The notes under the pieces: model-generated
What the model was told of the DNA's origin: nothing
Seen by the model: the letters and a program-made list of their open reading frames with translations, nothing else
Databases searched by the model: none
Source of the DNA: Sphyrna mokarran
Taxonomy: Eukaryota
Length of the DNA stretch: 64,000 bases
Assembly: GCA_024679065.1 (NCBI GenBank)
Contig: JAGIQG010000014.1
Span: 6,820,001-6,884,000, forward strand
Direction: 5' to 3'
Shown here: in pieces, positions 4,875-62,801 of the stretch
Position numbering within the stretch: the stretch's first letter is position 1
How the letters are laid out: each line of letters begins with the position of its first letter
Position numbers and translations under genes: made by a program

Positions 4875-5806
4875 CTACTGCCTGAACAGGAAGACTAGGT
4901 TTAATTTCACATATTTTTGCAACATCAGAATCATGGTCCAAGGAAATTTCACGATCTTCTTCAGCTCTTCCCTGAATTTAGCTTGTGTAGCTGCATAAAT
5001 GCACGTGTTCGTGCATGAACTTAAATGAATGAGCAGTGTTCCGGTTTCGGTGGCGATATATGCAGCAGATGTGTAATCCAACCGGACATAAACAAGCATC
5101 CGACTGGCTAGATAACTAATGGCTCTTGTCGCCCACAACAATACAAAACTACTAGAAATAGTGAACAATAAAATAATGGACTTCTTTCGGTTCTGTATCT
5201 CTGGATCATTCCAATTCTCACTGTTATGACTCCGCAGTCCGGCACGCGCTTTGCTGGACAACAAAATCCTTCTGACTGTCAAAAAATTAAATAGCAATAC
5301 CAAATTGAAGGGAATTAAGTTCAATAAAATACTTTCTAACAAGACAACTGCATCACCAATTTGAGAAGTATAAAAATCCTGTCGAGGGACGACACCCCAT
5401 TGAACACCATTAATAGTGTTCCTATGTTTAAATGCAAACCAAATGTACGAGTTCTGCAAATAGATAAGGACTGAGGATGTTGTTAAAACTGCAGCCGCCG
5501 TTCTCGCGGTGCAATAGATTGTTCTAAACTTCTGACTACATATAATAATATATCGGTCAAAAGTGAATGAGACTGTAAACCATACTGACATATACAGGTT
5601 ATTACAAAGCATATATATCATTAATTTGCAAACAACAGTGTAGGAGAGGAATGAATTTGGAAAACGTTTTCTCAAAACGTTGTACAAAATTACATTGATA
5701 AGCATCACTAACAAATCTGCTGTTGCCATGGCCACCATGTAGATAGAGACACATCTGGAAAGGCCGCAATTTCCTTTGGCGAGGATCACGATGGTCACGA
5801 GATTCG
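4875..5806 (-). CDS. GPCR gene 1, exon 2 (TM1-TM7): class A GPCR, probable G-protein coupled receptor 139-like (GPR139/GPR142 group); spliced product 333 aa
   Basis: 7-TM ORF with ANLVTIVIL (TM1), MATADLL (TM2), FTFDRY (TM3), LLW (TM6) and NTCIY (TM7). Acceptor ttctcccttgtttttacag|CG at 5807/5806, phase 1. Intron position matches the GLP|ANILTVIIL split as I recall it for GPR139. Confidence 0.92.
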
Positions 5807-6344
5807 CTGTAAAAACAAGGGAGAAGAACCAAGTCACGGAAACAATTTGGTTACACTCAGCATATTTTAGTGAAATGTTTGGATGCACTTTTGTTCAGTT
5901 ATAGACATGGACTCAGTTTATTGTACAAGACAGCACAGGTGATATATTTATTGATATAGATCACCTTAAACTCAATATTTAGGCACCAGCGATGTTCTCC
6001 CAGTTGCAATAACTGAAGTATAATCTTTTCTACATGTTGAGGGGAAGGTCGCCAGATTCAGTCTACAGAACGTTAATGGAAAGCTCTCCTCAGCACCATC
6101 GACAACTAATGAACTCAAATCTTAAAAGGCATCAGTTATGATTTCGCAGACTTGTATAAACCGGGTGATCTGGGATCAGCTTCTTTGCATCTATATACAT
6201 TTTATTACATTAAGCACCACCCGTGACACTGGTCGGGGAGTACATTCACCCTAATTCGAAATCAAACCTTATGCCGCGTGCCCGAAGGGAAATCCTCAGG
6301 AAGGAAATTCCGATTTCCTCAATAAATTGTACATTTTGTCATTT

Positions 6345-7410
6345 CCTCCATGAGTGTCCTACGCTCAAACGTCGTCATCTTCTTCTATATTATTCCAATG
6401 TAAGGTCAGAATTGGGAATGATCATTGATGGCTACACAACGTATCGTATCAGATTTGAGTCTCCAGATACCGGAGCAGCCGGTTCCAAATGAAGCAAGAT
6501 GTGGACAAAATCCAGATTTGGGCTGACCAGTGCGAAATAATGGCTACGTCACGCAAATTTCAGGGAATGGCCGCTTACACCAATACATAATCTAACCATT
6601 TCCCTTTGACATTCGATACCATCATTGAGTTCACAATTATTAGCATCAACCATAAACACTACCTGAACTGTGCGCGCCATATGAAAAAAAGATTAGAAAA
6701 TCTCAGCAGGGCTGCCAGCTTCGTCGGGAAGAAAATAGTCGGCACTTTTTCTAGCATTCCTTACTTTTGTTTCAGATTCCAGTTTCCACTGCGTTTTGCT
6801 TATTTTAGCAAATAAATAATGTCCACAAAAGCAAATCAGCGGTTTGGAATCCTGCAGTGAATAACAGATCTCTTGTCTCCCAAAATCTTATGCACTGTTT
6901 ATAAGTGATGGAGTGATGGAATACTCTCCACTTACTTGCCCGAACGCAGCTCCGAAGACCCTCAAGATGTTCTAGACAATGAAGGTCGATGCAGGCCTTC
7001 ATTGCATCGAATGAAGCAATGTTGGATTACTAACCCGCCCACAAAATGTTCACTATCTACCGCGGACGCACTATAGCAGCTGTGAGCAGCATTTAACGAA
7101 CTCACCAGGCACCTTATACAGCATTATACCAAACCCTCGACCGCTATCATCTAAAAAGTAACGGGCAGCAGATATGTGGGAACACCACCATTTTAACGTT
7201 GTCCCAAAGTCATTGAACGATCTGAGTGGAAAATACATCGCTGTTTCTTCGCTGTAATTGTGTCAAAATCTTTGAATTCCCTTTTCCTCTACCAGCATCG
7301 TGCGTACACTTACAACTTGGACTGCAGCGAATCAGGAAGGCAACTCACCACCCGTATCCGAAGAGCAGCGAAAAATGAAAAATAAAGTACATGGATGCCC
7401 ACATCACACA
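6345..7410 (+). mobile_element. Old decayed CR1-group LINE 3' portion in the intron (antisense to gene), with nested Penelope-like remnant at ~6685-6810
   Basis: Degenerate RT-coding sequence (SVLG..IFSCFI..L....RSEVGM..DD.T, QQDLDNIQ.WAD.WQ-like). Same position in all four gene introns. Confidence 0.7.
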
Positions 7411-8163
7411 AATAAATAAAATAAATGCGAGCAAACAAATGATTCATTTCTTTACAGTAATTCGCTGTGCTGCAGCTTTGACAACTCAATCCATCCATCA
7501 CGAGGCTTGTGTCAGGTGATGCACCGACCAATTGTATAAGTGAGGGCGGCGGCACGGTGGGGCAATCCATTGAACTTAGCGTCTTAAGTTTACTTTCAAG
7601 AGCTGCGTTCAATATCAGGGGCGGTAAGCGTAATATTCACTCGTTATGTAAATAATAATAGTCTTTCAAATAAATCAGTGAGATGAGAAAATAGCCAGAG
7701 AAATTAATTCGAGACGGTGGGATTCTAACGTTTATCATTAGCGGAAGGGAGCTGTCGGGCACAGAAAAGGAAACAACGGAACTGATTTGCTACCCTGCGG
7801 AGACAGCAGTCCCTGAACAGGTTTCTTTTTCCTTGAAATACATTCCAGTGATTTTTCCTTTCCGGAAAGGCCGCATTTCGAGGTAATGTCATCGTAATGG
7901 GGTAAGAATACAGATTGTCACTGCAAATAATTCACATACAGATCTATGAACTGTCGGAAGGGAAGAGTATCAGCCTCAATCTCCGTTAATGTTGGGAGGG
8001 AATTTAAACTTCAGGTGTCACATTCTTCTGAGCTGAACCGCGGCTCACACGCCATGCCACCCGTTGAGACTCTCACTGATATTCAACAATATATCTCGGC
8101 AGAGAAAAGACATTGCAATAATGACCTTCTCGCAATCAGTTTGCCGAATCAGTGAGCAGTGAG

Positions 8164-8738
8164 TGACAAAGAACAAAGAAGAAAGCACAAAACAGCCCGC
8201 GAAACAGGCCCATCGGCACAACGAGCCCGCGCCGCCACCTCGATGTTCCCACTTCTACCCATGATCCCTGTCATCCCTGTCTATTTTTGTAGATCTATGC
8301 ATTAGAACCAAATTTAAGACAATTTAGGGAGAATTTGGTCTGCCAATCAGCCTAAGAGCACATCGTTGGGATGTGGGAGGAAACTGGAGCACCCGGAGAA
8401 AACTCACGCAAGAACGGGGAGAATGCGCAAACTCCCACAGACACAGGCCCTAATCCATGTATCTGCACAGCACAGCAATAGTCACTGAGCTGTCGTGTTG
8501 CCCACCAACTGGCCCAGGTCAAGCGTACACTAACAATGTGAAGCAAAACGCTACTCTTGAAAAGTCCAAGAGCACCCCTCTCACGGCCCCTCGCATGTAT
8601 GCCCCTTGTTATACAAGGCGGACCGAAGTCCCTGTAGGATAAAGCAAATACATCAATATCATCGAAAATTTACACATTTCCCAGGGAACTCCCAAGGCCT
8701 ATTTTAAAATCAGTTTTCTAAATCTCTCCATTACCGGG
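8164..8738 (-). mobile_element. 5'-truncated CR1 family-B element (3' UTR with embedded V-SINE domain) in the gene 1 intron
   Basis: Matches 40352-40925 and the reverse complement of 57590-58153. The empty site cagtgag-at-actccgcaac is present in paralog gene 3 (~48373-48391). Confidence 0.85.
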
Positions 8739-8769
8739 ACTCCGCAACTATGAAACAACATTGACTTAC

Positions 8770-8839
8770 CGGGCGTACCAAAAGCTGCCAGCACGGGATA
8801 GAAAAGTTCATTGATCTGTAGAATTAATGGGCGGGCCAT
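8770..8839 (-). CDS. GPCR gene 1, exon 1 (MARPLILQINELFYPVLAAFGTP)
   Basis: 70-nt coding exon from ATG to CCC G|gtaagt. Phase 1 joins exon 2 to give FGTP-ANLVTIVIL. Same length and near-identical sequence in genes 2 and 3. Confidence 0.9.
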
Positions 8840-14266: not shown

Positions 14267-17200
14267 GTTCAAACCTTTCGGTGCCTTGATTTAATCGCTT
14301 TCAGGATTGGAGCACTCTGCTGAAATGACTGATGAGACTGTGCGAACTTCTCTTCCTGAATGAAAAGTGATAGTTGAGGATTTATGCCTGTTTATTTGCA
14401 CTATTATCTGCTTCTGTTGAAGCGAATGGAAGAAGCATACGTATTTCAGGTCAGTTTTTTTTTCCTTTCCCGAACCACAGAAGAATCTAATTGACTGCTA
14501 AATGTTCTCTCAGGGGTCATTTGAGATGAACAGTAAATTGCATCCAAGGCCAACAGCTCCCCCAGCGCACAAATGGATCAAAACTGCTGACCTTCGTTTA
14601 TTCAATTTGCCATCATATGTATATAAGACCTGAGTCTCCCGATTGGGTGTGACGTATATACTCACTCGCTTCCTCATATTAATAATTTCTTGCAGCTATA
14701 TTGCCCACATGACGGAGCGTGTTTGGGCGCAATTGTTTATGCCTAAATTACATCTTGATTGTTATTTGTCTAGTTCAGTAATTTAACATGCACAGCCGCA
14801 GTGAAGGTCAGCCTGTGCACGATACTGAACAGGAAACATTCGTTTATTTTCTGACAAACTATTCCAAATGGAGGGGTTGAAGAAGTTTGACTGGTATCAA
14901 TCCTGCATTTCACCTTTGATTGCTGCAGCTGCCAAAATATATCAGCTATTGTGCGCTGCTCAGGAATGCAAAAACAATGTAATCTCCAGGACCAAGCGAT
15001 TAATCATCTGAGTAAACTGCGCCTATTGACATTCTGCAGATTCTGAATTGTTTTCAGGTCAATGCATGTGACGAATTATGATCAGATGATGCATACGAGC
15101 AGAACTACAAAAGGATAAACGCAGACTACTTGGATGAACTGATGGATCGGAGACAAATGATAAAGAGCGGAAAGATTATATTCATTTTAAGCTCTTACAT
15201 TTGGCATTGAATCAGGAAATGACATTATGCCTCAAGAATCATCAGGTGACATCTGCCGTGTGCAAATATCTGTGGTCTGATGCTGCCCGTGTTCGAACGC
15301 GGCAGTTGTAGTGGAAGGCACTAACTCTGTGTTACACAGCAACTGTAGTGTAAGTCAATCCACACAATAAAGCAGTATCTGGTCTGAAATAATTGCTGCA
15401 GTTTTAGAGGAAACCGCAGTGTCCGGTAGTACTTGTGGTGCAATGCTGTAGCTGTGGTGTAAGGTATAACCAGTTAAAGCACATGTGATTTAAGTCTAAC
15501 CCAGCAGTTTCAGGGGATAACTAATGTGCAACGCAGAACTGTGGTGTAAGGTATTAACTTTCGTGCAAGGCAGCATCTGTGATATAAGTCAGTATCTGTG
15601 GTCCAAAATGGAACATGTGGTGTAAGATACTTCCTGCGGTTTTAGATATATCTGTGGCGCAAGGCTGCATATCTGTAGTTGGCGGCACCAGTTGTATAAA
15701 CCTTTGAAACAGAGCAGTATCTGCAATTTCTGAAGACGAGGCAGTTCCTCTGGTGAAGGCAGTGTCTATGGGGTGAGGTGTCGTCCGACCGTGTAAGACA
15801 GTACCATCTATGTGACATCGTTACTGCTCTGTAAGGAATGTTGTACAGTGAAGACAGCATTTGCATTTGCAAGGTATACCTGTGGTGTAAAGCAGTTCGT
15901 GCAGTGTAAGGATGTGAGTATAGTGCAATACAATACCTTCGGTGCAATCACTTCCTGCGCTGGCATAAGCTCCAGTAGTGTAAGGCAGAAGCTATGATGT
16001 AAGCAAGTATCTTGTGCATAAGACAGCATCTGTCTTTGTAACCCAAAAACAGCGGTGTAAGGCACTACTTGCCTGGGTACAATCCAGGTCAGGTATTTCA
16101 TGTGTTTTATGAAGTCACAAAACCGTATGTTTGCATTCTGAATTTGGTGCGGATAGCCATGAGATGACTTCAGATATGAATTAAACGACAGACCGGTGAG
16201 CTTTTATCACACAAATTTAATTCCAAAATACAGTTAACAGAAAGAAAATTAGCAGTAACTTTCACGAATCGCAAACAATAACAGAAACAACCATGATTTG
16301 TCAAACTTCACAGCATAATGTGCGTACCAACACAACATACTTACCAACATATGCACCTAATTTCGATTTAACACAGAAAATATAAATGCTGAATGATGTT
16401 TCAGCTCTGCTACACATGTGGCTGTTACTCCTTTGGATGGAGAAATGAAATAATGCCTTCTGCATTCGGAGACTCCCACACTCGAGGTGGATATAGTGCC
16501 ACTGCTTTCCTCCAGCTAATGAAACACGAACAGCACGATGTTCATGCTGAAAAGTACGAAAGTCTATTTCCACTAGCCAGCAGAATTTTTAATACCAGGT
16601 ACGGACAAACCAGCAAGCGAAACAGAAAGTGAAAGAATTCCTGCGAGGAAAAAATAAAACTCTTCCGCTTGTCCTATCAAAAATCTGCCCCCAATAATTC
16701 CAAAATTGCCATAACCTCCATGAGAATGCATTAGGCCTAGATTGAAAATAAATAAATAAACAATTTAATAAGTTAAGGAAGAATTAAATGACATTTAGGA
16801 GGCGGCTCAATGCCAGCTTATTACTGCAGAGAACATGATTAAATTGCATTTCTTAAAGCACAGTAGCGTCTCTTATGCATTATTAAACGTTCCTTGAGGT
16901 GCAAAGTGTATCGGTAGCAGAACACAAAACTTGTGGTTTCAGGTAGCAGCTGCGGTATAAGACAGTAACCGCTTTGTAAGGGAGTATCTATGGTGAAAGG
17001 CAGTAGCTGTGGAGCTATGTTGTGCTTGCAGTGCAGGGCATTACCTATGGTGTAAAGCAGTAGCTATGTTGCAAGGAAGTAGATTCAGAGTAAGACAGCA
17101 TTTATGATGTAAGGAAACGTCTGTGGTTTAACACATCAGCTGTGGTATAGAAAGCAACTGAGGTGTAAGGCAATAACTGTGCTGCAAACCAATTCCCGTA

Positions 17201-18620
17201 GTGAAGAAAGTACCTGCAGCCTACGGAAGTAATTGTCGTGAAAGGAAAAAGCTGTGGAGTAAGGCCTCCACAGTACCTGTGTGCTGGTGACGACAGTACC
17301 CTTGTGTAAGGAAGTGTCTGAGATGAAGTCATTCCCCGCGGTGTAAGGTAGTGTCATTGGTGTCGTTCTTGCACTGTAATGCAGTTCCTGGAGTAAAGAC
17401 AATATACGCTTTGAAAGGTAGTACTTGCGGTATGAAGTAGTACATGTTGGTGGAGGGCAGTACTTACAATGAAGGCAGCCACTACGCTGAAGGCATACTT
17501 ATGGTGGAAAGCATGCCATTGCTGTAGTGGAGAGTAAATAAAAAATATTTGTGGTAGACCGCAGCACCTAAAATGAAAGGTGATATGTATGGTGTAAGAA
17601 AGTAGCTTCAGTTTAGATCCTGTTGTGTAACTGATGAAGTTCAGGGTAGTACCTATGGGTTACATAGACACTGCGGATTTAAGCAACGCATGCAGTGTGA
17701 GTTAGTTCCTTTAGAGTCAGTGAGTACCTGCAGAGTAAAGCAGAACCTGTGGCATAAGGCAGTAGCTGCAACACCTGTTGTGAAAATCATTAGCTGTAGT
17801 GCAAGGCAGTATCTGTTGTGCAATAAAATTCCAGGCGTGAGGCGGTATCGTTTTTTGCAAGGTAGTAGCCTCGGTGTGAAAACTGTTGTACTTTGCGGTA
17901 TCAGTGGTTCAAGGTCGTACCTGCGGTGTAAGGCAAAACAATCGGTGTAAGACATATTTGTTGTATAAGGAAGAACATGAGAGGAATGGCAGTAGCTGTG
18001 CTGCGTTGGATAGCCTGTGCGTATGACACAACCTGTGGTGCGAGACAGACTTTGAAATATAATGTAATACGGTTTCCGGCACTAGCTGCTGGGTAAGCAG
18101 TTGCCTGCGCTGTACATGTTGTACCTGTTGTGTGAAACAGGTACAAGTGTGAAACAGTATCTTTGGTGCAGGGCCGCATCTGTGGTGTAATGCAGAGTCC
18201 GCGGTTCAAGGTAATACCTGCGGTGAAATGTGGTACCTGTGTTGTACGGCAGTCCGTGGTACAAGGCCGCCACTGTGGTTTAAGGGAGAAACTGTGTTGT
18301 ACGCATTGCCTGCGATGTAAGGCAGTGACGTGTAAGGTAGTGCTGCGGTATCAGTCAGAAGTCGCAGCATAAAGCAGTAGTGTGATTCAAGATAGTGCCT
18401 GCAGTGCAGGACGATTCCTGTCATGCAATAAATCACCTGTGCTGGAAGGTGGTTCATCAGGTTTAAGGCTGTACCTGCGGTGAGACTGCGGAGAAAGTAT
18501 AAGATAGTCCCTGTGGTGTGAGCAACACGTACTTGTAATGTTGCACCTGTAGTGTAGTCAGTATCTGCGGTGTAGACAGTAGCTATGGTGCAACACAGTT
18601 CCTATTGTTTAAGATAGCAC
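14267..18620. repeat. Segmental duplication block, copy B (gene-less unit), including 19-bp minisatellite blocks ~15240-16080 and ~16900-18620
   Basis: Colinear with 1-4546 and ends abruptly at ttaagatagcac (18620). Confidence 0.9.
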
Positions 18621-18654
18621 ACCACTAGTGACCGACCTCCAGCTAGAGAAACAA

Positions 18655-19445
18655 ATCTTACAAAGATGAACAACGAGAACAAAGAGCAACACAGCACGGA
18701 AACAGGCCCTTCTGTCCCAACTACCCACACGCCGCTAACGTCTCATGACTATCCTTTCTTTTAGGCATGCCTATTGTTGAAGATTCCCATATAGGGACAA
18801 TATAGTGCAATTTGTACCCATCACTAAGAGCAATTTTTGGGAGGTGGGAGCATACCGGAGGCACCCGGAGGAAACCACGCAACCACGGTGAGAACGCGCA
18901 AACTCCCGCAGACACAGGCCCAAATCCATGTGTCAGCACAGCAACAGCGATAGTCTCTGAGCTGTTATGTTGCCCATCAGATGGTCCAGTTTAAGCATAC
19001 ATTGACGACGTGAAGCACTAGGCAACTCCTGGAGCAACCTCCAAGAGCAGCTCTCGCACGACATGCCGCATGCATGCCCCTTGTTGGTCAACAAGGTGGA
19101 CCGAATTGCCTGCGGAAACAAATAAGACTTAATTAAACATGCTAAAAAAAAATTAAGACATTCCCGAGATGAAACTAAAAGATAGTCTACTACTATTTGG
19201 TCCTCCCGATATTCAAACAGTCCTGCTATATCCCTCTATCTGCAGACCGCTCATGTGGCTGTCCAAGAGACCCTTAAACAACCCTAGCGTGCCTGCTCCC
19301 ACCACCTTACTCGGCAGTGCATTCCACACCCCCACTATCCTTTGTGTGAAAAACTGGCCTCTAATATTCGTCTTAAACATAGCCCCCCTCACCCTGAGCC
19401 CATGACCCCTCGTTCTATCCATTTCTAATGGTGGAAAAAGCTTAC
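18655..19445 (-). mobile_element. CR1 family-B-related LINE 3' end with V-SINE-containing 3' UTR (diverged subfamily), next to a 30-bp internal RT fragment at 18621-18650
   Basis: ORF 19213-19527 contains RTRGHGLRVRG...FFTQRIVGVWNALP. The 3' UTR is homologous to 57600-58150. Confidence 0.85.
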
Positions 19446-19449
19446 CATT

Positions 19450-22400
19450 TACTGGAATCTTCGCAGGTTCCAGTGTAGTGACGACAGGACAATGAGGCTT
19501 GCAGGTGGACGATGGCAATATTCTCATGTTTTTTTTTTAAATGCCTTTGTGCTTGACACTACCCATTCCTCTCAAATGCTGATGAAATTGTGGCAATTAC
19601 ACTTTTTCAGGATCAGAGGTCCTGGGGAAATGTCTTGTACGATGCATTGTCAATTTTAAAGTCCTGAATGATAAATTGCAAGGCACTCTTGAAACATTTC
19701 TTCTGAGCGCCACTGAAGCGTCGTCTATTATTCAGTTCAGCATTGAAGATTTGAGAAGGAATTAGTTGTCTGGCATTCTGGCTGTTGCTTCAACTCATCA
19801 GAGCAGCTTTTTCTAATAACATTGCGAAAATCCTGACCATACCGCATCTTCCGAGTACCTGTGTGTCTGGGAATTTGTCCTGCGTCTTGATTTTGTGACG
19901 TTTGTTGAGGCAGCAAATATAGAAGAGGTGAATTTCACTGTGCGTCAGTTGTAGCCGGTCCAGGTCTCATTCGTGCAGAGAAGAATGGAGATTGTGCTTG
20001 TTCAGTCGACACTGAACACGGCATTTAGCCTCACCTCTCAACGCCCGGTAATGAATAGCAACGTGTTAACAATTCTGGCATTGGGCTCCTCACCCATCTG
20101 AACATACTGTGTGGAAGTGCTGCGTAGTTGGATGAACTTCTCCACAGGTCGCAATTTCTATTTGTTCACTCTTAGTACGAGCTCTTAATAGAGTTTTATT
20201 TGCAGCCGGTTGAAACATGCTTTCTGTCTTCTTTGTACTGAGGGCAAGACAGAACTTATTGCATGGAGCAGATCGATTATGCATTGCTCACTGAAAGCAT
20301 TTAGTGCAAGTTGAAATTCGTGTAGTTTATCATGGAGGAACTTCGTCTTGACTTGGCGGCGTCGCAACTTGAAAATCTGGCTGCTTAATCCATAGTTGAT
20401 TTCTGTGCCTAATCTTTCTCTCGATGGCCTAAGTGCACACGGCTAAGGTCATGATGCTCAGGAGGACCAGTGCCAGTATGCAGCAGTGTTACATTCCATT
20501 GATGACAGTGAACGGGGCCGAAATCACATTGTCAAGGTGGAGACGGTCCTGCATGCCATTGTGCAACTGTCGAACCATCTGATTGAGTTATTTTGGATAC
20601 ACAAACTTGCTCATAATCTTCCAGAGCCCTTCGCTGCATACAATGTCGAAGCCTTGGCTCGATCGATGAATTTGGTGCATTGTTCTGCATTTTGTTTTGA
20701 ACGCTTCTGCTGCATTTGGCGAGGAACACAGACCATGTTGATGGTTTCAATTCCTTCTTTTCCCTGACCCACACTGGCCTCCCGGAAACAACACTGCTCC
20801 GATGAATTGGTTTAGAAAATTTTTTGCAAAGTCCTGTCCGGAAATATTCAGCACATCTAATCAGTTGTGTTTGTCACGGCATTGGAGTTCTACTTTACGG
20901 TTGCAGATGTGAGCAAAGAAGTAGTCATTAAAATATTGTGGAAGGACCTTTTGCTCCCATGTGAACTTCAGAGCTGGCTGTGCTTTCTGAGCCTCTATGA
21001 TGCACCATATCTATAGATGTTTGCTGGAATTTGATCGGCTTCAGGGGTTTTGTCGTTTCATAATTGCTCTTCACCTTTCTCACTTTCAAACAGTGTTGGT
21101 GCATTGCCAAGACAAGTGCAGGTATTGACCTGGGAATGTTTATTTATTGCTTCAAGATCAATATAAGATGGTTAATTGAGGATATTTTTGAAAGCCACAC
21201 CCATGTCTAACAACAGAAATTATACTTTGAATAGTATCGTCTCAAAAACGCTGCAATATCAGAGAACAATTTTCTGGGTGAGCCCCAAAGAACATCATGA
21301 CAGATTCGTAGTTGTGCCTCATGTTTGTTAGTTTTTTTTTTTGGTCAACAAGGCTTGTGCTACATCTGTCTTTTGTCTCAGCCACTTGCCCTGCATCTCA
21401 TGTCGTCTGCCTGGGACAGTGCTGTGAATGGCGTGATAAACAGTTCTTTTTCCCTCCGGATTTTCCTTTAGGAATATTCTGTACAATTGACGATTTTCTT
21501 CAAAAGGGTGCCGGATTTCAGGGCCACTTTCATCAAAACAGTCCTAGTGTCTTCTTCTTGTGCGACCCAATAACTTTTAAGCTGTGGCGTACACAGTCTC
21601 CCGTCAGAAACCCCAAAGCTCCTTATCGTCGGGTTTCTGCAGGTGCCTTGGTTCCTTGGTGAGTTGCAGTTGAATGTAGTCCATCTTCAAGCTTGAGATT
21701 TTCAATAGTTCAGTCTTCGTATTCCCTTGAGGGCGTCACTTTATTTCCATCTTCAGACAAGCTTTGGAAATAATATATATGTTCTCAATACAACAGCCGG
21801 TGCCATTCATGGTCTAAATCATGTTTACATCCTGCCTGAGATCCCTCCTGACAATTATGTAGTTCATGAGAATCCAATGGCCAGTTTTCACGTCCACTCT
21901 GTCAGGATGTCTGAATTTGACATGGGAGCCAGAAAACTGCACTGGTGAACAGAAGTTCATGATCAGCGTTGAATTGTAAGCATAGCAGACCATTGTTGTT
22001 GCTTTTGCCAAATGCGTTTTTCAGTAACAGACCTCCCTAAGTCTGTGCTGATTCCGGCATTAAAGTTATCAATTTTGCTCAGCTTGTCGTTGTCGCTATA
22101 GTCAGGGAGTTGGGTCTTCACAGAATCCGCATTTGATGAATTCAGGATTGGTTCCCATGGGAGTGAAAACACTGATGATATATATATTGTCTTTTTTTTT
22201 TGCTCCCTGCCAGCCATTATGATCTTGGATGACATGAGATAGTGTAGAAGGCTGGTCAAAATGTTCACCAGTTCATTTTTTTGTGCTAAACTCCCTCCAG
22301 CCTTGGGAATGTCCTTTTTGGTTTAACTATTCCAAATTTGCTCAATGCGGCAATGCCAACTTTGAATTGGGATGGACCTCTGCCAAGGAGGTCAGTTTTT

Positions 22401-22950
22401 TTTTCTGTTCTGGTCTGTCACATGGATATTGTGCAAGAGAATGCGTGCCTACCTTGTACCAAAGTGAGATTTATCACATTTGTTTTCTTTCTCTCTTTGA
22501 TATTGCTGCCTCTAAACTGCAGGTACGCCAAAGCGGTTTTTGAAATTCAGGCAATCTTTTGGGGAACCTTCCTAGCTTTTGGTGTCTTTGAGCAGTGTTG
22601 CCTTGAAAAGGGCTGCTCAATCTCTCAACGCTTTCAAGGCTACTTCACTTCAGTGAAAGATTACCCCATCGACTAAGCCACCTATATGCAGATTCACCGC
22701 TGCAGTTATCAATGTATTATTGAAACTGCTCTGTCCCTTACTCCACGGCGTTTGGGATTTGGATGATAGAAATATGGAGACGATTTGCGCGAGGATTTGA
22801 TTTAAGTGAAGGACAGTTGCCTCACATTCTATTCCTGCATCCATTGGCAGCATAGATCCCAGATGGCTGGAGAAAATCGGGGCGCACTAGGTGATCTTCT
22901 TGTGTCTGGTTTTGCTCATCGTGCTCCAAAACACTTTGTTTTTCATTCTG
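19450..22950 (-). mobile_element. Fossil near-full-length RTE-clade (BovB/RTE-1-like) LINE
   Basis: Frameshifted pieces of APE endonuclease (HWILMNYIIVRRDLRQDV, FNAGISTD), RT (region encoding QCGF...DMVF..RQ.QEK-like sequence) and C-terminus (QDKFPDTQVL). Confidence 0.8.
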
Positions 22951-23079
22951 TTGAATCGTTTCTTCCAGTTTCTTCTTGCAGTTAGCAAGACGTCGCACTG
23001 TCAGGCAGGCTCGCCATGTTTCCCAGTAGACTTCAGCACATCTCACCTGTTTTATCCCATTCGCAGAATTTATTTACCG

Positions 23080-23326
23080 TGCTATGGAAGCGGCCGCGTT
23101 GGATTTCTGGCATGGGTCACTTTACATGTGGTCTCTGCACATTCTCCCATCTCTTCTTGTGTTTCCTTCTGTCTTCTTCGCACTGTCAGAAAGTTTACTG
23201 CTTTGGCGATGCTAACTTTTCCTTCAGATGAGCTGCATAAGCACTGGAGTATGGCGACTTGGGAATTTTGATCGTCACTTCATCGCAGAGTCAATGTTAG
23301 CCGACATGTGACACTAATAAATAAAC
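23080..23326 (+). mobile_element. Decayed HE1/V-SINE
   Basis: gggtcact...ctgcacattctccc...gtttcc V-domain and 3' end ggcgact.ggga.tttt...acttcat.gcag...gtgacactaataaataaac. Paralog at 52235-52510. Confidence 0.65.
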
Positions 23327-23659
23327 AGAGCTTAATCTTAATTTCAGTAGCTAATTGGAGCCTAAGGTGAGACATGAGTGCCACATGGTGTCCACTGCAC
23401 GTGATCCGCTCCAAAAATGACGCAACGTGTTTCCCGATTGAGGTATGGACCTTTCTCCTGTCATCATTTACACCACAAAATGCAATTAGAGTAGTTTATC
23501 TTCTCTGAACTACTTCTAAAGTATCCGCACTTTCGTTTGATAAGGAGGGCACTTTGTGGTTTGCACAACTGAGAAATTTACAGAATGATCTTTCTTCTGT
23601 AAACTCTGTCCCAACAGTATTATAAAATATTCCTATTCACGAACTCCATTTCCATGTCA

Positions 23660-24020
23660 TTGTAGATTCCCATTTCTTTAAACAGAAGAACAAGTGGGAG
23701 GAGTACGCAATTTAGCTCCTCGAACATGCTCTGCCGTTCAATACAATCATGACTAAACTTATCAGTCTTAACTCCACTTTCCAGACATTTCTTTACAAAT
23801 TTTCAACACTTTATTAATCATGAAAAAATTTCCCGCTTAAACGCATTCGCTGTCCCGCGATCCACCGCATTTATGTGCAGTGAATTCTACAGATTCACGA
23901 TGCGTTGAGAAGATTAATTACACCTCACCTTTGCTTAAACTTTGTTACCCTTTAGCCGAACAGTAAGACCTCTCGTTCTAGCCTGTCTCTTCATTAGAAG
24001 CACCATTTCCACCTCTACGT
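23660..24020 (-). mobile_element. Old CR1 LINE 3' end
   Basis: ggagtacgcaatttagctcctcgaacatgctctgccgttcaata...gaattctacagattcacga resembles a reverse-oriented CR1 terminus. Paralog at 52870-53190. Confidence 0.55.
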
Positions 24021-24457
24021 TGTAAATTTCTAATGTTGATGTGCGTCATAGAGAGACAGTGAGGTACAAAGTTATGACGTATAACTTTTAGTATCATGGT
24101 TTGTTTAATATAATTATATGATTCTTAAAATTCACTCCATATAATACCAATTTGTATTCTCTTTTCCAATATCGAAAATATACCTCAGTCTATTCTCTTC
24201 CCACTGCCAAGCAGATCAACTTGTTGTTCGAAAGTTACTTTTAATTCTGAATAATACAACTGGAAGTCAACCAGTTGCTGTATTTTTTCTCCTTTAACGT
24301 TTCTGTGAATAAAATTGCGTATTACAAAGCATTTATTCTGCAAAGTTATCAAACAATTCGGTTTCTTTTTTAAATAAATTGCAATATTTATTCTGAAATT
24401 GACCCATATGCTGATTCTGTTCTAGACTTTGTTTATTTGAAATGCATATTCTTCATA

Positions 24458-25205
24458 TGTGTAGAGTATAGGGCTAATGGTAGGGCTCTTAATAGTGTTG
24501 AGGAACAGAAGGATCTTGGTGTATGTGTCAATAGATCCCTGAAAGTAGGCAGTCAAGTGGATAAAGTTGTTAAGAAGGCATATGGAGTCTTAGCTTTTAT
24601 TGGTAGGGGGATTGAATTTAGGAGCCGCAGCATCATGTTGCAACTGTACAAAACTCTAGTGCGGCCGCACTTGGAGTATTGTGTGCAGTTCTGGTCGCCA
24701 CATTATAAGAAAGATGTGGAGGCATTGGAGAGGGTACAGAGGAGGTTTACCAGGATGTTGCCTGGTATGGAGGGCAGGTCCTATGAAGAGAGGTTGAAGG
24801 ATTTGAGGTTGTTTTCGTTAGAAAGGAGGCGGCTAAGAGGGGATCTTATTGAAGCATATAAGATGATTAGAGGTTTAGATAGGGTGGACAGTGATAGCCT
24901 TTTTCCTAGGATGGAGAAAGCTAGCACGAGGGGACACAGCTTTAAATTAAGGGGTATGAGTTATAGGACGGATATCAGAGGTAGGTTCTTTACTCAAAGA
25001 GTGATTAGGGAGTGGAATGCCCTGCCTGCAGCTGTTGTAGATGCGCCAAGTTTGGTGGCGTTTAAGAGGTTAATTGATAAGTATATGGAAGAGAAGGGAA
25101 TGGTTTAGTTTGGAGGGGCATTGCTTTTTATTTTGGTCGGCACAACATCGAAGGCCGAAGGGCCTGTTCTGTGCTGTATTGTTCGATGTTCTATGTTCTA
25201 TGTTC
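24458..25205 (+). mobile_element. Young 5'-truncated CR1-type LINE (family A), intact RT C-terminal ORF
   Basis: LYKTLVRPHLEYCVQFWSPHYKKDVEALERVQRRFTRM...FFTQRVIREWNALP, with a (ctatgtt)n tail. Empty site in paralog at ~54735. Confidence 0.95.
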
Positions 25206-26479
25206 ACTATTTACTCGGAAATGGTGTACGAAGGAAAATGCCACAAAATGACGATTCCCCATCCCATAAAGGAATTAAAACGTTTGCTCAAGACAACCCC
25301 CAACCCCGACCCAATGACACCAGGCCCGTCTTTGCAATGACGTCATGTCCTATCCAACATCAACAGAGAGAACAAAAAAGCGCAGTTCACAAAAGAATGC
25401 AAATTCGTCGCTGCTGAACTGCTTTAATGTTTTACTTTTAACTTCGGAAAAGTATGCCTGTAATTGCTGAATTGAAATCGACATATACCTCATTTGAGGA
25501 TGCCAGAAGAATGTTGTATATTGCGGTCTGTGTCTTGAAGTAGCATACGTAAAACTTATTGATCAGCAACGAGAGAGAAAACTCAGTCTGTTAAACCTCT
25601 GAAACATTGGACAATGTGTTACTGAATAAGCCACTCCTACTGACGGCATAGTTTATTTAGATTTGCAATTGAACGTAAAGCAGCAATGCTAAATTGTGGA
25701 GGAATGAGAGTTTTTTTTGGAGTTTGGGGCGAGTGAATGGGGTGGGGGAGTTGTAAGGGAAGGGGAGTGTATGATTGGAGCCTGCAGGAGGTTGCAGCTT
25801 TCTCTTCAAAAGAGATGGGAAGTTTGTGTGTGGGTGGATGTGTGTGTTGGGGGCGCAGCAGATGGTGGAAAGGCCTTCAGCCTCAGGGATGCAAGTTTAG
25901 TCGTTGTTGACCTGCAGAGTGCAGATTACTGCCTACCCGTGGCCTTTCCCTAGGCACTGAGAGTCCTCCGACTGTAGGCCCAGGCTTCTCGGGCGTTTCC
26001 CTTTCTCTGCAAGTCGCTCTCGAGGAATCCCCGTCTCTGTGGCTTCAGCGCCCGCTGCTGCTCACATGTGGGCAGCTGCTTCGCGTCACTTCCAGTCGGG
26101 AGCCTCCAGGGTCCTAAGATTCATCAGTCATAACAAAATGCAATCAAACAATATTCGAGACTTTAAGAGAGTTGGAATGAAGTTTGAGAAGCGCAGAAGA
26201 AAAGTAAAAGACAGCTTAGAAAGTATGTGGGCACAGCTTGCAAGAAGTCGCCTCGCTCCGGCGCCATCTTGGAAGACAAATACGGATATGCAACGCTCTA
26301 TTTTAAAATAGGTTGAGTGCTTATCCTGGCACTCGCCCTTGAACCAGTATCCGTCGTGGTCATTGATGATTTAAATTGACTACTATTCGCCACTTAGTCT
26401 GAAAAGATGAACGACGAAGGATATCAAAACAGAAAAAAAAGAAAACAGTAAGCATGATTTACTATATTTCTGTTTGCAG

Positions 26480-28420: not shown

Positions 28421-28568
28421 AATGTATGTCAGAAATTTCAATTTCAGTTTAATACAGTTGGCCTGAATGATATGCTTTGCACATTGAATTTATCGCAGGT
28501 AAGCTTGAGATGTTTCACATTTAAGTATGACTTAACTTTGTGTGACAATCTCACCAGTAGTTTATTTA

Positions 28569-29371: not shown

Positions 29372-29584
29372 CACCAATGGTTCTGCAGTAGGCATTGGAA
29401 GATACAACGAAGAGTGGAACTGTGTTTCTGATGTCCATTATTTAAAGAGACACCATTTTTTTTGTGGCAGGAAGGTCGGCATTTAAATGTGTGCTTCACT
29501 ATTACCTGAACAGGAAGATTACATTTAATTTTGCATATTTTTGCAATGTCAGAATTATTCTGCAAGGAGATTTCACGATCTTCT

Positions 29585-30426
29585 TCAGCTCTTCCTGAAT
29601 TTAGCTTGCGTAGCTGCATAAATGCACGTGTTTGTGCATGGACTTAAATGGATGAGCATTGTTCCGGTTTTAGTGGCAATATATTCAGGGGATGTGTAAT
29701 TCGCTCGGACATGAACGACCATCCCACTGGCTAAATTACTAACGACCCTTGTCAGCCGCAACAATAGAAAGCTACTGGAAATAGTGAACAACAAAATAAT
29801 AGATTTCCTTCGGTTCTGTATCTCTGGATCATTCTGATTCTCGCTGCTTTGACCCCGGAGGCCCGCACGGACTTTGCTGGACAAAAAAATCGGTCTGATT
29901 GACAAAAAGTTACATAGTAATATCAAAATGAAGGGAACCCATGTCAATAAAATACTTTGTAACCAGCTGAATGCTTCACCAGTGTCAGATGTATAGAAAG
30001 CCTCGCTGGGGATGACACCCCATTGAATGCCATTTATTGTGGTTCTCTCTTCATATGCAAACCAAATGTACAAGTTCTGTAAATAGACAAGGGCCGTGAC
30101 TGTTGTTAAAACTGCAACCTCTGTTCTCGCTGTACAATAGATTGTTTTCAATTTTTTGCATATGGCAATGTATCGGTCAAACGTGAAGGAGACTGTAAAC
30201 GATACTGACATATACAGATTATTACAAAGCATATATATCATTAATTTGCAAATAACCGTATAGGAGAGGAATGAATTAGGAAAACGTTTTCTCAGAAGGT
30301 TATACAAAATTACATTGATGAGCATCACCAACAAATCTGCTGTTGCCATGGCCACCATGTAGATAGAGACATATCTGGAAAGGCCGCAATTTCCTTTGGC
30401 GAGTATCACGATGGTCACGAGATTCG
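29585..30426 (-). CDS. GPCR gene 2, exon 2: GPR139-like receptor with a C-terminal frameshift (possible pseudogene)
   Basis: 7-TM ORF with acceptor ttctcccccgttctacag|CG. A 1-nt loss at ~29594 (cc vs ccc) gives KFRKS* instead of KFREELKK... It also has W6.48>R, HLSP and a 1-codon ICL2 deletion. Confidence 0.85.
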
Positions 30427-31849: not shown

Positions 31850-31919
31850 CGGGAGCACCAAAAGCTGTCAGAACAGGATAGAAAAGTTCCTTGATCTGCA
31901 GAATTAATGGGCGAGCCAT
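31850..31919 (-). CDS. GPCR gene 2, exon 1 (MARPLILQIKELFYPVLTAFGAP)
   Basis: 70-nt exon, ATG to G|gtaagt donor. Not in the ORF track as such. Confidence 0.88.
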
Positions 31920-41789: not shown

Positions 41790-41899
41790 TAGTCAGGCAG
41801 ATCGATGCTTGTTTATTATAGTAGAAAACACGGTTAAATTTACGTTTCTTAAAGCACATCTTGGTAAAGTAAGCCGTTACTTAAGGTCTTTAGCAGTAG

Positions 41900-44170: not shown

Positions 44171-44391
44171 TGATGCAAACATATTTTAATCCACTATTAG
44201 AAAGACATCATTGATGTTCTTTGTGTAGACTGACTGGGAGTAAGCCGTTACGTAAGAAAACACCAACAGTCAACGGCGAATAGCAGTAGGCGTCAGAAGA
44301 TAAAACAAAGAGTGGAACAATGCTTCTGATGTCCTTTATTTAAAGAGACGCTTTTTGTGGCAAGAAGGCCGGCATTCAAACGTGTACTTTA

Positions 44392-45323
44392 CTATTGCCT
44401 GAACAGGAATACTAGTTTTAATTTTACATATTTTTGCAACGTCAGAATCATTGTCCAAGGAGATTTCACGATCTTCTTCAGCTCTTCCCTGAATTTAACT
44501 TGTGTAACTACATAAATGCAAGTGTTTGTGCATGAACTTAAATGGAGGAGCATTGCTCCGGTTTCAGCGGCGATATACTCAGGGGAGGTATAATCCGGCC
44601 GGATATGAACGATGACGCCAGTGGCTAAATTACTAACGACTGCTGTCAGCCACAACAATAGAAAGCTACTAGAAATAGTGAACAATAAAATAATAGACTT
44701 CCTTCGGTTCTGTATCTCTGGATCATTCTGATTCTCACTGCTTTGACCCCGGAGGCCCGCACGGACTTTGCTGGACAACAAAATCCGTTTGATTGTCAAA
44801 AAATTAAATAGTAATATCAAAATGAAGGGAATCCAGTTCAATAAGATACTTTGTAACCACCTGAATGTCATACCAGCATGAGAAGTATAAAAATCTTCGT
44901 TGGGGATGACACCCCATTGAACACCATTTATTGTGCTTCTCTCTTCATATGCAAACCAACGGTACACGTTCTGTAAATAGATAAGGACCGTGGCTGTTGT
45001 TAAAACTGCAGCCGCTGTTCTAGCTGTGCAATAGATTGTTTTAAACTTCTGACTGCATATAGCAATACATCGGTCAAACGTGAACGAGACTGTAAACCAT
45101 ACTGACATGTACAGGTTATTACAAAGCATATATATCATTAATTTGCAAACAACAGTGTAGGAGAGGAATGAATTTGGAAAACGTTTTCTTAGAAGATTAT
45201 ACAAAGTTATATTGATGACCATTACCAACAAATCTGCTATTGCCATAGCCACCATGTAGATAGAGACACATCTGGAAAGGCCGCAATTTCCTTTGGCGAG
45301 GATCACGATGGTCACGAGATTCG
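44392..45323 (-). CDS. GPCR gene 3, exon 2: GPR139-like class A GPCR; spliced product 333 aa
   Basis: Intact 932-nt exon with acceptor tctctcgttcttacag|CG. Has the DRC variant of DRY. AATAAA lies ~50 nt past the stop (44335-44340, minus strand). Confidence 0.92.
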
Positions 45324-46258: not shown

Positions 46259-46594
46259 TTTAAGTGTGATCGTTTCCACATGTTGAGGCACGGGTCGCCC
46301 GATTCTGTCTACAGAATGTTAATGCAAAGTTCCCCTCAGCACCATCGAGAACAACAAAAAAAAACAAGTCTCAAATGAGATCAGTTATGATTTTGGAGAA
46401 TTGGATAAACCGAGTGATCTGGGATGCCTCCTTGCATCCATATCGATTTAATTACTGTAAAACGTCACCTCTGACACTGGTCTGAGACTCCATTCATCCT
46501 AAGTCGAAATCACACTCATTCTGCATGCCCTGGGGAAAATCCTCAGAAAGAAAATTTTGGTTTCCTCTATAAAGTGTAGTCATATCATTTCTAC

Positions 46595-48418: not shown

Positions 48419-48488
48419 CGGGAGCACCAAAAGCTGCTAGCACAGGATAGAAAAGTTCCTTGATCTGAAGAATTAATGGACGGGCCAT
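48419..48488 (-). CDS. GPCR gene 3, exon 1 (MARPLILQIKELFYPVLAAFGAP)
   Basis: 70-nt exon, start of ORF 48300-48488, with G|gtaagt donor at 48418. Confidence 0.9.
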
Positions 48489-58624: not shown

Positions 58625-58950
58625 CAGTTGTCATTGTGACATTGTAATCCCGAGATAACAATCCAGACATCACTCGTATGGTGTGGATTCTAGTTTAGAA
58701 ACCTTAATATTGTGGATTTGAAAACAATATTGTTTTTCGAAAACTGTGTGATGACCATGAATAGATTGTCGTAAATAGCTTTCCAGTTCACGAATCCCAT
58801 TAGGGAAGGGGATATGTTATCCTCATCTATTGTGAAGTCGATTCCAACCCATCACAATCCAGTACACTGTTAAATGCTCTCTCGAGGACGATATGAGACG
58901 AACAATAAATTATATCGAGTCCAGACCGACCCAACCCAGTAATGGATAAA
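58625..58950 (+). mobile_element. Decayed SacSINE1/DeuSINE-like SINE
   Basis: Paralog of 26480-26800. Confidence 0.5.
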
Positions 58951-59619
58951 TGGTGTTGCCCTTAGTCTGTTTAAAGAACCTTCGTGTGTATATAATACGA
59001 GACTCTAACTGTTGGATTTGATATATGTACTCACTCTTCCTGATATGAATGATTTTTTGCAGCGATGTTGCGCATATGACGGAGCATATTTTTGAGCAGT
59101 TGTTCAGGGCATCATCATACAAATTACACGTTGGTTGTTTCATGTCTCGATCAGTAATAATGTACGCACAGCGTTTGCGGAGTTCAAGCGGTCGGCGACA
59201 TTAAACTGAACGCATTCATTAACTTTCTGGCAAGCAATTCCAAATGGAGGGATCCAAGTTGTTTGACTGGTACCTTTCCTGAAATTCCCCTTTCATTGCT
59301 GCAGCTGCCAAACTATATAAGAAATTACTTGCTGCTCAGTAATGGAAAGATACAGCAAACTCCTGGAGGAAGCCATGAATCAACTGGTTAATTTGCACAT
59401 TTTTGACATTCTCCAGATTCTGAATAGAAATCAGATCTATGCATGTTGACGAATTCTGAACTGGTGATTTCATCTGAGACAAAATGGAACATAATAGATA
59501 AACGCACAGTACTTGGATGAACTTGCCGTGTGGATGGAAATGACAAAGAATGGAAAGATCAAAGGGATTATAAACTCTTTCATTTAGCATTAAACAAAGG
59601 GGTCGCATGAAGCATCAGG

Positions 59620-60540
59620 TGGCACTTGCCGTGTACATTAATATTTGTGGTGTGAGGCTGCCTATGGTGAAATGCGATAGATGTAGAATAAGGCACCAAA
59701 TCTTTGTTACAAAACAACTATGGTGCAAGTCAGTATCACCACGATAAGGCAGTATCTGGTGTAACGCAATTCCTGAATTTAAGAGGAAACCACATTGAAC
59801 GGTAGAACGTACGATGTAATGCATTACCTGCAGAGTGAGGCATAACCAGGTAAGGTACACTTCTTACTTAAGGCGGATCCAACAGTGTTAAAAGATTACT
59901 GTGGTGCAAGGTAGAACATGTTGTGGAAGAAAGTAATTGTGGTTTAAGGCAGCACCTCTCATGTAAGCCACTACCTGTATTGCAAAACGGTACCTGTGCC
60001 ATTCGGCATTTCTTTCTGCGGTGCAAAGCAGCATGTTTGTTGTTAGGCAGTACAGCTTTGTAAACATGTAGTATAATGCAGAACCTGCAATGAAAGACAC
60101 TTTCCACAGTGAGGGCAATTCATGTGTAGAAGGCAGTGCAATATCTTGGGTGAAATCATTTGTCGCGGCCTAAGATAGTACCTTTGTTGTAACACAGCAA
60201 CTACGGTGTAAGGCAGTCCTTGCGGTTTAAAGTGGCACCTGTGTTATAACCCAGCTCAGAAATTTCAAGGTATTGTGTGAAGTCAGTCAGCACCAATGAA
60301 GATAGTGTCCACGTTGGAAGGCAGCAGCTCCGGTGTAAGCCAACAGCTGTAGTGTAAGGACATGTGGATAGTGCAACACAATACCTCTGGAGCAATCAGT
60401 ACCTGCGGTGTACAGAAGCTCCAGTGATGTAAGATGGAACTTATGATGTAAGGAAGTAGCTTCGGTGTAAGAGAGCACCTACGGTGTAACAGCAACTGCA
60501 ATGCAAGACATTACTTGCATTTTCTAGAGGCACCTGTGTT
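59620..60540. repeat. Degenerate 19-bp minisatellite, distal block of the gene 4 unit (short proximal remnant at ~61390-61610)
   Basis: Paralog of 27480-28420. Confidence 0.75.
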
Positions 60541-61616
60541 AGAATGCATGCCAGAAATTTCAAGGTGTTTAATGAAGTCGGCCTGAAACGTCTGCTTTGT
60601 ACATTGAAGTTGGCGCCGGGAAGCTTGAGATGTTTCACTCCAGGTATGACTTAAATGAACTACTGGTGAGCTGGTCCCATAAAGTCAACTTCAGAAATAC
60701 AGTTAACACATAGAAAGAAAATAGCAAATTGAATTTTAGCAATTACAAAAAAATAAAAGAAACAACCAAGCTTAACAGCAGCTAACAAACCTTAACAGCT
60801 CAGCACATCAGGCGTACCAGCATATGCACCCAGTCTCGATTTAGCACAAAAATTTTGTATTCCCAATGAATTTTCAGCTCTGTAAGGCCTGTGGTAGTTA
60901 GTTCTTTGGATGGAGAAAAGAAACACCTGCTTCTCCATTCTGGAACTCACAGCACATCGAAGTGGAGACAGTGCCGCTGCTTTCCTCCAGCTTGCAGACT
61001 ACAAAAAACAAAGCGTTCACTCCAGAAAATTAAGAAACACTATTTCAATCTAGCAGCAGAATTTTTAATAGAACAAAGCGGCAAAATAGTGCTTCCAACC
61101 TCGAGCCCAAGCAACTTCGAAATAAAAACAACCAAAACTAAAAGTGAAAGAATCGGCGAAGAAAAATAAAAGATATCTCTTTCCTTTTGACCTGTAAACG
61201 TTTTCCGCAGCAATTCCAAATTTCCAAAAACTTCAAGAGCGTGCTTTAGGCCCAGATTGAAAATAAACAAAATACAAATTAATCATTTGATGACCAATGA
61301 AATGACATTACTCAGATGGCCTGGTGCCTGTTTATTATTGCAGAAAACACGATTAAACATACACTTCATAAAGCATAATAGCGTCACCTCTGCAGTGTAA
61401 GTCGTTACTTGAGTTCAAAAGCAGTACCTGGTGCATAGTGGTATTTGTGGTGTAACACAGAATTTTTTTGGTTAAAGGTAACACCTTCGTTGTAAAAGAG
61501 TAACCGCGATGTAAAGGATTATCTGGGTCTAAGGCAGTAGTTTTGGAGATATGCAGTGCGTGGAGTGTAGGGCAACAACTGTGCTGTAAGGCCGTACCTA
61601 TGGTGTCAGAAAGTAG

Positions 61617-61751
61617 ACATGATGTGGAGATACCGGCGTGGACTTGTTTAAAAACAGTAAGGAGTCTCACAAATCCAAGTTAAAATCCAATATGTGTATT
61701 TAGTAGTAAAGGACACGATATTTGGGGCTCTGTCTCTTCGTCAGTTGAGTT
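61617..61751 (-). mobile_element. Penelope-like terminal repeat in the presumed 3' UTR of gene 4 (hammerhead degenerate)
   Basis: Same position as 29237-29371. Minus strand reads CUGACGA-A-GAGAC-AGA-GCCCC-AAA, with stem II mismatched and the G of GAAA lost. Confidence 0.7.
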
Positions 61752-61869
61752 CACCAACGATTCAGTACTAGCGTCAGAAGATAGAACAAAGAGTGGAATA
61801 ATGCTTCCACTAAAAGAGACGCGTGACATTGTTTGTGTCAGGAAGGCCAGCATTCAAACTTGTACTTCA

Positions 61870-62801
61870 CTATTGCCTGAACAGGGAGACTAAATTTAAT
61901 TTTACATACTTTTGCAACATCAGAATTATTCTCCAAGGAGATTTCACGATCTTCTGCAGCTCGTTCCTGAATTTAGCTGGTGTAACTGCATAAATACACG
62001 TGTTTGTGCATGAACTTAAATGCATGAGCATTGTTCCGGTTTCAATAGCGATATATTCAGGAGATGTATAATTCCGCCGGATCTGAGCGACCATCCCACT
62101 GACTAAAAAGCTAACGACTCTTGTCAGCCACAGCAGTAGAAAGCTACTAGAAATAGTGAACAAGAAAATAATAGACTTCCTTCGGTTCTGTATCTCTGGA
62201 TCATTCTGATTCTCGCTGCTTTGTCCCCGGAGGCCTGCGCGGGCTTTGCTGGACAACAAAATCCGTCTGATTGTCAAAAAATTTAATAGTAATATCAAAA
62301 TGAAGGGAATCCATGTCAATAAGATACTTTGTAACCAGCTGAATGCTACACCAATGTGAGAAGTATAAAAAGCCTGGCTAGGGAGGACACCCCATTGAAC
62401 ACTATTTATTGTGCTTCTCTCTTCATATGCAAACCAAATGTACAAGTTCTGTGAATAGGTAAGGACTGTGACTGTTGTTAAAACTGCAGCAGCTGTTCTC
62501 GCTGTGCAATACGTTGTTTTAAACTTCTGACTGCATATGGCAATATATCGGTCAAACGTGAATGAAACTGTAAACCACACTGACATATACAGGTTATTAC
62601 AAAGCATATATATCATTAATTTGCAAACAACGGTGTAGGAGAGGAATGAATTAGGAAAACGTTTTGTCAAAACGTTATACAAAACTACATTGATGAGCAT
62701 CACTAACAAATCTGCCATTGCCATGGCCACCATGTAGATAGAGACACATCTGGAAAGGCCGCAGTTTCCTTTGGCGAGGATCACGATGGTCACGAGATTC
62801 G
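61870..62801 (-). CDS. GPCR gene 4, exon 2: GPR139-like class A GPCR (exon 1 expected beyond the window end)
   Basis: Intact 932-nt exon with acceptor tcttcactttcgttcttacag|CG, FDRY and NTCIY. Confidence 0.92.

Follow-up and report, generated by a model that had tools for sequence, protein, structure and literature searches.

What a tandem array of receptor genes resembling GPR139 and GPR142 is doing in a shark genome is the question raised by a 64,000-nucleotide stretch of Sphyrna mokarran DNA (assembly GCA_024679065.1, contig JAGIQG010000014.1; G000:C446:6820001-6884000 in our numbering of this 2.77-Gb genome), referred to below as the window. A preliminary description, made from the sequence of the window alone, had proposed that these G protein-coupled receptor (GPCR) genes belong to an expanded chemosensory or immune-sensing repertoire whose variation is concentrated at the ligand pocket. 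The family to which the window genes belong in fact numbers about 1,400 gene copies, so that the window holds only a small share of it. Judged from sequence, the feature is real, much larger than first noted and under selection as a receptor repertoire; it is far larger than the known smell-receptor families of the shark and is likely an unrecognised chemical-sensing repertoire.

The window array and the size of the family

Four minus-strand, two-exon class A GPCR genes are present in the array, each built as 70 + 932 nt, together with one unit that has lost its exons (TM, transmembrane helix):

4875..5806, minus strand: gene 1 exon 2, 932 nt, intact, Pfam 7tm_1
8770..8839, minus strand: gene 1 exon 1, 70 nt, encoding the N-terminus and the first half of TM1, from ATG to a phase-1 GT donor
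14267..25959, minus strand: emptied fifth unit, both exons missing, flanks kept, dispersed repeat (18668-19418) at the junction
29496..30426, minus strand: gene 2 exon 2, with deletions and W3.41/W6.48 replaced; likely a decaying pseudogene
31850..31919, minus strand: gene 2 exon 1, 70 nt, ATG to GT donor
44392..45323, minus strand: gene 3 exon 2, 932 nt, intact
48419..48488, minus strand: gene 3 exon 1, 70 nt, ATG to GT donor, preceded by a TATA-like element some 77 nt before the ATG
61870..62801, minus strand: gene 4 exon 2, 932 nt, intact
about G000:C446:6885132-6885201, minus strand: gene 4 exon 1, 70 nt, outside the window

The four same-strand paralogs given in the preliminary description were recovered with their splice ends, ATG and stop: exon 2 of genes 1-4 begins after an AG acceptor at 5806, 30426, 45323 and 62801, and the length to the stop is 932 nt in genes 1, 3 and 4. 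The eight sequence motifs that it quoted all lie on the minus strand at the expected places, and the first exon of gene 4, said to fall outside the window, was located about 1.1 kb beyond its end. All four genes match Pfam 7tm_1 (E 3e-13 to 2e-18) and an AlphaFold2 model of gene 3 has the seven-transmembrane (7TM) helices and a beta-hairpin in extracellular loop 2 (ECL2), with a predicted local distance difference test score (pLDDT) of 79.5; they are class A (rhodopsin-like) GPCRs. The small deletions reported in gene 2 correspond to 3 nt near 30157 and 1 nt near 29596, the latter causing a frameshift in helix 8, and because W3.41 and W6.48 are both replaced as well, this gene is likely a decaying pseudogene. 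In the emptied unit, also as described, both flank copies are present: 14267-18620 copies the downstream flank of gene 1 (87-89%) and 19457-25959 the upstream flanks, with no remnant of exon 1 or exon 2 between the two.

A genome search with gene 3 gave 2,443 candidates, and the 128 that were scored all matched at E below 1e-73, mostly on contigs C446 and C1548. Three mutually exclusive TM3 motifs were found 936 + 163 + 319 = 1,418 times, versus 1 + 8 + 2 = 11 times for the reversed-motif controls. We checked 80 loci, a non-random set taken from the first 100 matches listed per motif, of which 40 formed two runs of neighbours (20 each) and 40 two scattered sets (20 each): 79 were family copies (one badly decayed) and one was a chance match, the second exon was intact in 62 of the 80, and about 22% of the sampled copies were broken. 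Of 33 loci examined for a first exon, 23 had one at a distance of no more than 10 kb. We estimate that the genome may hold 800-1,100 distinct intact main exons. The expanded repertoire had thus been understated, with some 1,400 motif-bearing copies in place of the mere handful genome-wide that had been named as an outcome speaking against it. Among the matches listed, family clusters occur on 16 contigs, and 24 of 27 hand-listed positions fall in the outer quarter of a contig, 14 of them in the outer tenth.

Such numbers could reflect genes that were mostly carried along passively when unstable regions underwent segmental duplication, with some inflation from the assembly and few functional members. 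Consistent with this, 30 intact genes among 35 local copies are reduced to 22 when only those below 99.5% identity are counted, small contigs duplicate main-contig loci, and broken copies and the emptied unit are part of the picture. However, near-identical pairs are absent from two of the three subfamilies analysed (A, from the window, 22 genes; B, from C1548, 23 genes; C, from C224, 14 genes), where 23/23 (B) and 14/14 (C) genes were kept, and members of the family turn up in the proteomes of many sharks and rays. General inflation of the assembly does not explain the count either, because the class C NCD3G (V2R-type) domain gives only 50 matches in the same assembly, about 36 of them on one contig, which is close to published V2R numbers. 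Those 36 or so, at G000:C882:3.46-8.45 Mb and 39.9-40.3 Mb, are likely V2R/OlfC clusters, and one family copy was seen at C882:13921. Separately, large array blocks at G000:C446:6.38-7.53 Mb, C796 and C855 occur as exact repeats, of which some are inverted or placed on small contigs, and may be either very recent segmental duplications or assembly duplications.

Ancestry of the family

A protein collection yielded 1,075 relatives, of which the best 120 all come from sharks and rays, most under the automatic name 'probable G-protein coupled receptor 139', and further members were found in skates and electric rays. The expansion is therefore common to sharks and rays, with relatives in many proteomes, and the term lineage-specific, if taken as peculiar to one lineage, does not hold. 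No holocephalan or chimaera was among the family matches that turned up, chimaeras not having been searched directly.

That these genes are not GPR139 orthologs was right. The shark has its own single GPR139 (C749:56.37 Mb; 98% identical to that of Mustelus and 86% to human) and its own single GPR142 (C783:12.53 Mb; 55% identical to its GPR139), while the other 126 scored matches were only 24-33% identical and 26 of 28 fetched were family copies. A clade joining the family with GPR139/142 was rejected by the approximately unbiased (AU) test in a 22-row quick tree (p-AU 0.0004), so that orthology with either gene, considered as a candidate explanation, was ruled out by the separate loci together with this test. 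Kinship is nevertheless visible. Human GPR139 is the best sequence match of the family in the PDB (E 3e-7), W3.41 and W6.48 are shared, R6x51 is present in 20 of 22 local members, and a phase-1 intron just before N1.50 is common to GPR139, GPR142 and family copies, all of which have its acceptor at an identical codon position, with the GPR142 donor also at the matching position; GPR139's own exon 1 was not found within 40 kb. This intron places the family in the broad GPR139/142-related lineage. Unlike GPR139 and GPR142, the family has C3.25, an ECL2 cysteine in most groups, and a longer ECL2 and intracellular loop 3 (ICL3).

The main tree had 35 rows and was rooted with three unnamed invertebrate-like proteins; L057, somatostatin-receptor-like by reading of its translation, was left out after the first tree. 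GPR139 and GPR142 form a clade apart from the family (support 100/99), a salamander gene groups with the family (100/100), and the successive outgroups to the amphibian gene plus family are coelacanth/teleost sequences, then an anchovy/caecilian group that includes the shark's own L066, then amphioxus. The amphibian gene may branch either outside the shark radiation or just within it (support 88/62). This nearest relative, named 'probable GPR139' in amphibians and sturgeon, occurs about once per species (of 25 matches, 20 are amphibian clusters and one is from a sturgeon) and is conserved at 66-74% identity, in contrast with the roughly 1,400 copies here; no amniote was among those 25 matches, from a word-limited search that does not establish absence in amniotes. 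The family is a third lineage related to GPR139 that has expanded in sharks and rays. Two side branches are worth recording: L066 (G000:C1104:25011285-25012169), a divergent single gene grouping with anchovy and caecilian 'probable GPR139' proteins, represents a further unnamed vertebrate paralog, and a coelacanth/teleost clade of unnamed GPR139-like receptors (P0333, P0339, P0374) adjoins the family in the tree.

By language-model features, near neighbours of the family include nematode srw-type clusters (score 0.96) along with MIP/FMRFamide-type peptide receptors. Orthologs of GPR139 carry Srw/Srx matches, and srw is described as derived from peptide-type rhodopsin receptors (PMC3963977). 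The Srw profile itself (Pfam PF10324) was unmatched by the window proteins and by P0002, P0327 and P0333, and in our view the shark expansion would be independent of nematode srw, the trees having been built without nematode sequences.

Listings and abstract openings from the full-text literature on GPR139/GPR142 in sharks, on receptor expansions and on chemosensation, subscription journals excepted, contain no description of the family. The term GPR139 is absent from the accessible part of the little skate genome paper supplements and from the nurse shark spleen paper supplement, the available part of the whale shark supplements mentions GPR142 in a single orthogroup line and GPR139 nowhere, and a list of 226 orthogroups of the rhodopsin family gives no species breakdown in its first 30 rows. 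RefSeq lists many family genes under one automatic name; others may therefore already have come across these public sequences.

A constant signalling core and a diversified ligand face

When the family was reduced to 40 groups below 70% identity, N1.50, D2.50, C3.25, W3.41, D3.49-R3.50, P5.50, F6.44, N7.49 and Y7.53 were invariant in all 40. Eight deep-pocket sites averaged 2.74 bits, versus 1.11 for the intracellular helices, and 36 deep-pocket signatures were present in the 40 groups. The ECL2 cysteine partner of C3.25 is kept in 36 of the 40. It is lost in a clade formed by the window exon 2s with L001-L035, L038, L039, L043, L049 and L050, and in the window subfamily it is position 3x33 that carries a cysteine; both canonical cysteines are lacking in GPR139/142.

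Among the four window genes, which are 77-84% identical as proteins, variation is uneven in the way proposed, with differences clustered in ECL2 (10 of 23 sites variable), outer TM5 (9/15), outer TM6 (10/13) and ECL3 (6/10), to which outer TM7 (7/14) has to be added. The statement that TM1-TM3 and ICL3 are nearly invariant stands for TM1 (0/11 in its exon-2 part), ECL1 (0/8) and outer TM3 (1/19), and fails for ICL3 (4/10) and outer TM2 (5/15). Likewise, the location of this variation at the ligand pocket is correct for the deep sites when subfamilies are compared, while within the window array it is the outer vestibule that varies and not the deep pocket. The 17 GPR139 agonist contacts (PMC8807744), placed on the family by alignment, illustrate this in subfamily A: the ratio of nonsynonymous to synonymous substitution rates (dN/dS) is 0.3 at the nine deep contacts and 1.3 at the eight outer ones. 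The agonist residues F3x33, H5x43, W6x48 and N7x38 (PMC5430874) and R6x51 (PMC8807744) correspond to C, Q, W, T/A and R/A in the window subfamily, so that F3x33, H5x43 and N7x38 are not kept, and these sites vary widely across the family.

Codon models were fitted with our own code, not PAML, with branch lengths fixed from nucleotide trees. One-ratio dN/dS was 0.50 in A, 0.50 in B and 0.46 in C, with a ratio of 1 rejected in likelihood-ratio tests (LRT 59-85), and in A the region singled out earlier as variable had 0.75-0.9 compared with 0.3 for TM1-TM3 plus ICL3. The uniform divergence with dN/dS near 1 that the preliminary description had named as an outcome speaking against its proposal did not occur. 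The extracellular excess was significant in circular-shift tests in A (p=0.03) and B (0.01). Comparison of M8 with M8a gave p=0.0014 (A), 5e-6 (B) and 8e-14 (C), and the sites with posterior above 0.9 were extracellular in 2/2, 15/20 and 12/18 cases (expected 0.9, 8.8 and 7.9). The three subfamilies show modest positive selection. The cytoplasmic half is under purifying selection and the extracellular face changes faster.

These results also bear on the passenger explanation. Exons are 87-89% identical versus 70-78% for introns and flanks, and terminal branches have the same dN/dS of about 0.5 as internal ones, with no sign of relaxation, which together with the evidence on copy number makes it very improbable that the genes are mere passengers. 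The number of pocket signatures, in turn, argues against a role in internal or reproductive signalling, in which the receptors, expressed in gonad, sperm or brain, would serve an expanded set of endogenous peptides or the recognition of gametes or mates. With 36 signatures in 40 groups, the ligands would need to have expanded to match, and hundreds of copies with frequent pseudogenes are rare for receptors of endogenous ligands. GPR139 acts in the brain as a receptor for L-Trp, L-Phe and alpha-MSH (PMC8807744) and groups with invertebrate neuropeptide receptors (PMC8514136), and the conservation of the amphibian sister gene is like that of a dedicated signalling receptor; even so, we regard this alternative as unlikely and favour the sensing of external chemicals.

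The flanks of the array show a degenerate repeat with a 19-bp period, 3-5 kb long, downstream of the gene in each unit (autocorrelation 0.33-0.35 versus 0.26):

1..4600, no strand: degenerate 19-bp-period repeat tract downstream of gene 1, by autocorrelation
14267-18600, 26500-29300, 38600-44200 and 58900-61700, no strand: similar 19-bp-period tracts, by autocorrelation

Dispersed repeats lie at 24457-25203, 34344-35426, 40355-41791, 45536-46259, 55976-58150 and 8166-8735; several carry reverse-transcriptase fragments, and they are likely non-LTR (long terminal repeat) retroelements. One is inside the gene 3 intron and another at the junction of the emptied unit.

A candidate sensing repertoire

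A constant core, a ligand face diversified at two depths, birth-and-death in arrays and a conserved TATA promoter (TATAAA lies upstream in 10 of 18 diverse members, versus 0-1 in control windows) are observed together. Since a constant core with a diversified ligand face is the design of a sensing repertoire, with a common output and many inputs, the family likely works as a repertoire for many external chemicals, a reading to which we give a probability of roughly 0.5. Under this proposal, one GPR139/142-related orphan gene would have been amplified in sharks and rays; the shared signalling core would give all members one common G-protein output, subfamilies with distinct deep pockets may bind different ligand classes, and recent duplicates may have entry and selectivity tuned at the vestibule. 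Given the kinship with GPR139 and the MIP/FMRFamide receptor group, the ligands are likely small peptides or amino-acid derivatives.

The clustering, birth-and-death and ligand-face diversification found here are those by which chemosensory repertoires are recognised. They are shared with OR, TAAR, V1R, ORA, V2R, OlfC, T2R and FPR, which have pseudogenes, a constant signalling face and a variable ligand face, and mammalian OR repertoires are comparable in size. The ancestry is different, however, and the family has one intron in the coding region: 7tm_1 alone was matched, with no profile of OR, TAAR, V1R, V2R, T2R or FPR, and none of these was among the 120 best homologs. A narrower version is that the family is a further shark and ray chemoreceptor family, in which about a thousand putative GPR139-cousin receptors, each sparse in olfactory or other chemosensory cells, would supply odour discrimination; this we put forward tentatively, as a possibility somewhat short of even odds.

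Several observations weigh against the chemosensory interpretation. An O/E-type olfactory site was seen in one of 15 promoters, and none of the motifs tested showed clear enrichment. Subfamily C has no significant extracellular excess (circular-shift p=0.16), positive selection in A is weak (5% of sites, ratio 2.6) and its top selected site toggles between I, L and V, and the ratios of 0.75-0.9 in the variable region could also be given by relaxation. Recombination is detectable in the subfamilies (p 0.003-0.04), and with separate trees for three segments the M8 versus M8a comparison is weaker, although it still holds (p=0.013, 0.002 and 2e-13). Catshark olfactory neurons are nearly all TRPC2+/Go+ microvillous, already explained by V2Rs (PMC10116579), and immune and somatosensory repertoires evolve likewise.

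This last point leads to an innate-immune or host-defence repertoire with an FPR- or MRGPR-like role on leukocytes, granulocytes and barrier epithelia, recognising microbial or parasite peptides. Host-pathogen conflict would account just as well for birth-and-death arrays, recombination and positive selection on the outer face, the clusters among the matches listed lie mostly toward contig ends, and the fold neighbours include GPR15, CCR3, C3aR and FPR1. These fold matches (E 3e-7 to 3e-6) are, however, level with opioid, somatostatin and orexin receptors, the search not separating peptide receptor families, and by sequence the lineage is GPR139-related, neither chemokine nor FPR. ETS, NF-kB, IRF and octamer motifs were not enriched in the 15 promoters. 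An immune role is thus rather unlikely in our judgement, though ahead of internal signalling, and chemical sensing remains the reading we prefer. As to the promoters themselves, an octamer-like word near the window ATGs was considered as a clue and rejected, being present in 0 of 15 proximal promoters of other subfamilies. The promoters of L162-L201 show mild enrichment of a few AT-rich words in the 200 nt that precede the TATA box, and one AT-rich hexamer occurs in 9 of 15 promoters versus 0 distal, uncorrected for multiple testing.

A relative paucity of GPCRs has been stated for cartilaginous fishes (PMC8455134), and their smell is ascribed to 8-43 V2Rs plus a handful of other receptors (PMC10116579); in catshark only 2 OR, 6 OR-like, 3 ORA, 3 TAAR, 2 TARL and 32 V2R genes are reported (PMC11979771). 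Some 800-1,100 apparently intact class A receptors would overturn the statement of paucity, whatever the tissue in which they work. The V2R-based view of shark smell becomes directly testable with existing catshark organ transcriptomes, and the conserved amphibian sister gene, available in Xenopus and axolotl, offers a laboratory route to the ancestral ligand. If the olfactory version is true, sharks would have a capacity for odour discrimination beyond the apparent reach of their few dozen known receptors, and the family would mirror, in vertebrates, the way in which srw expanded from peptide-type receptors in nematodes.

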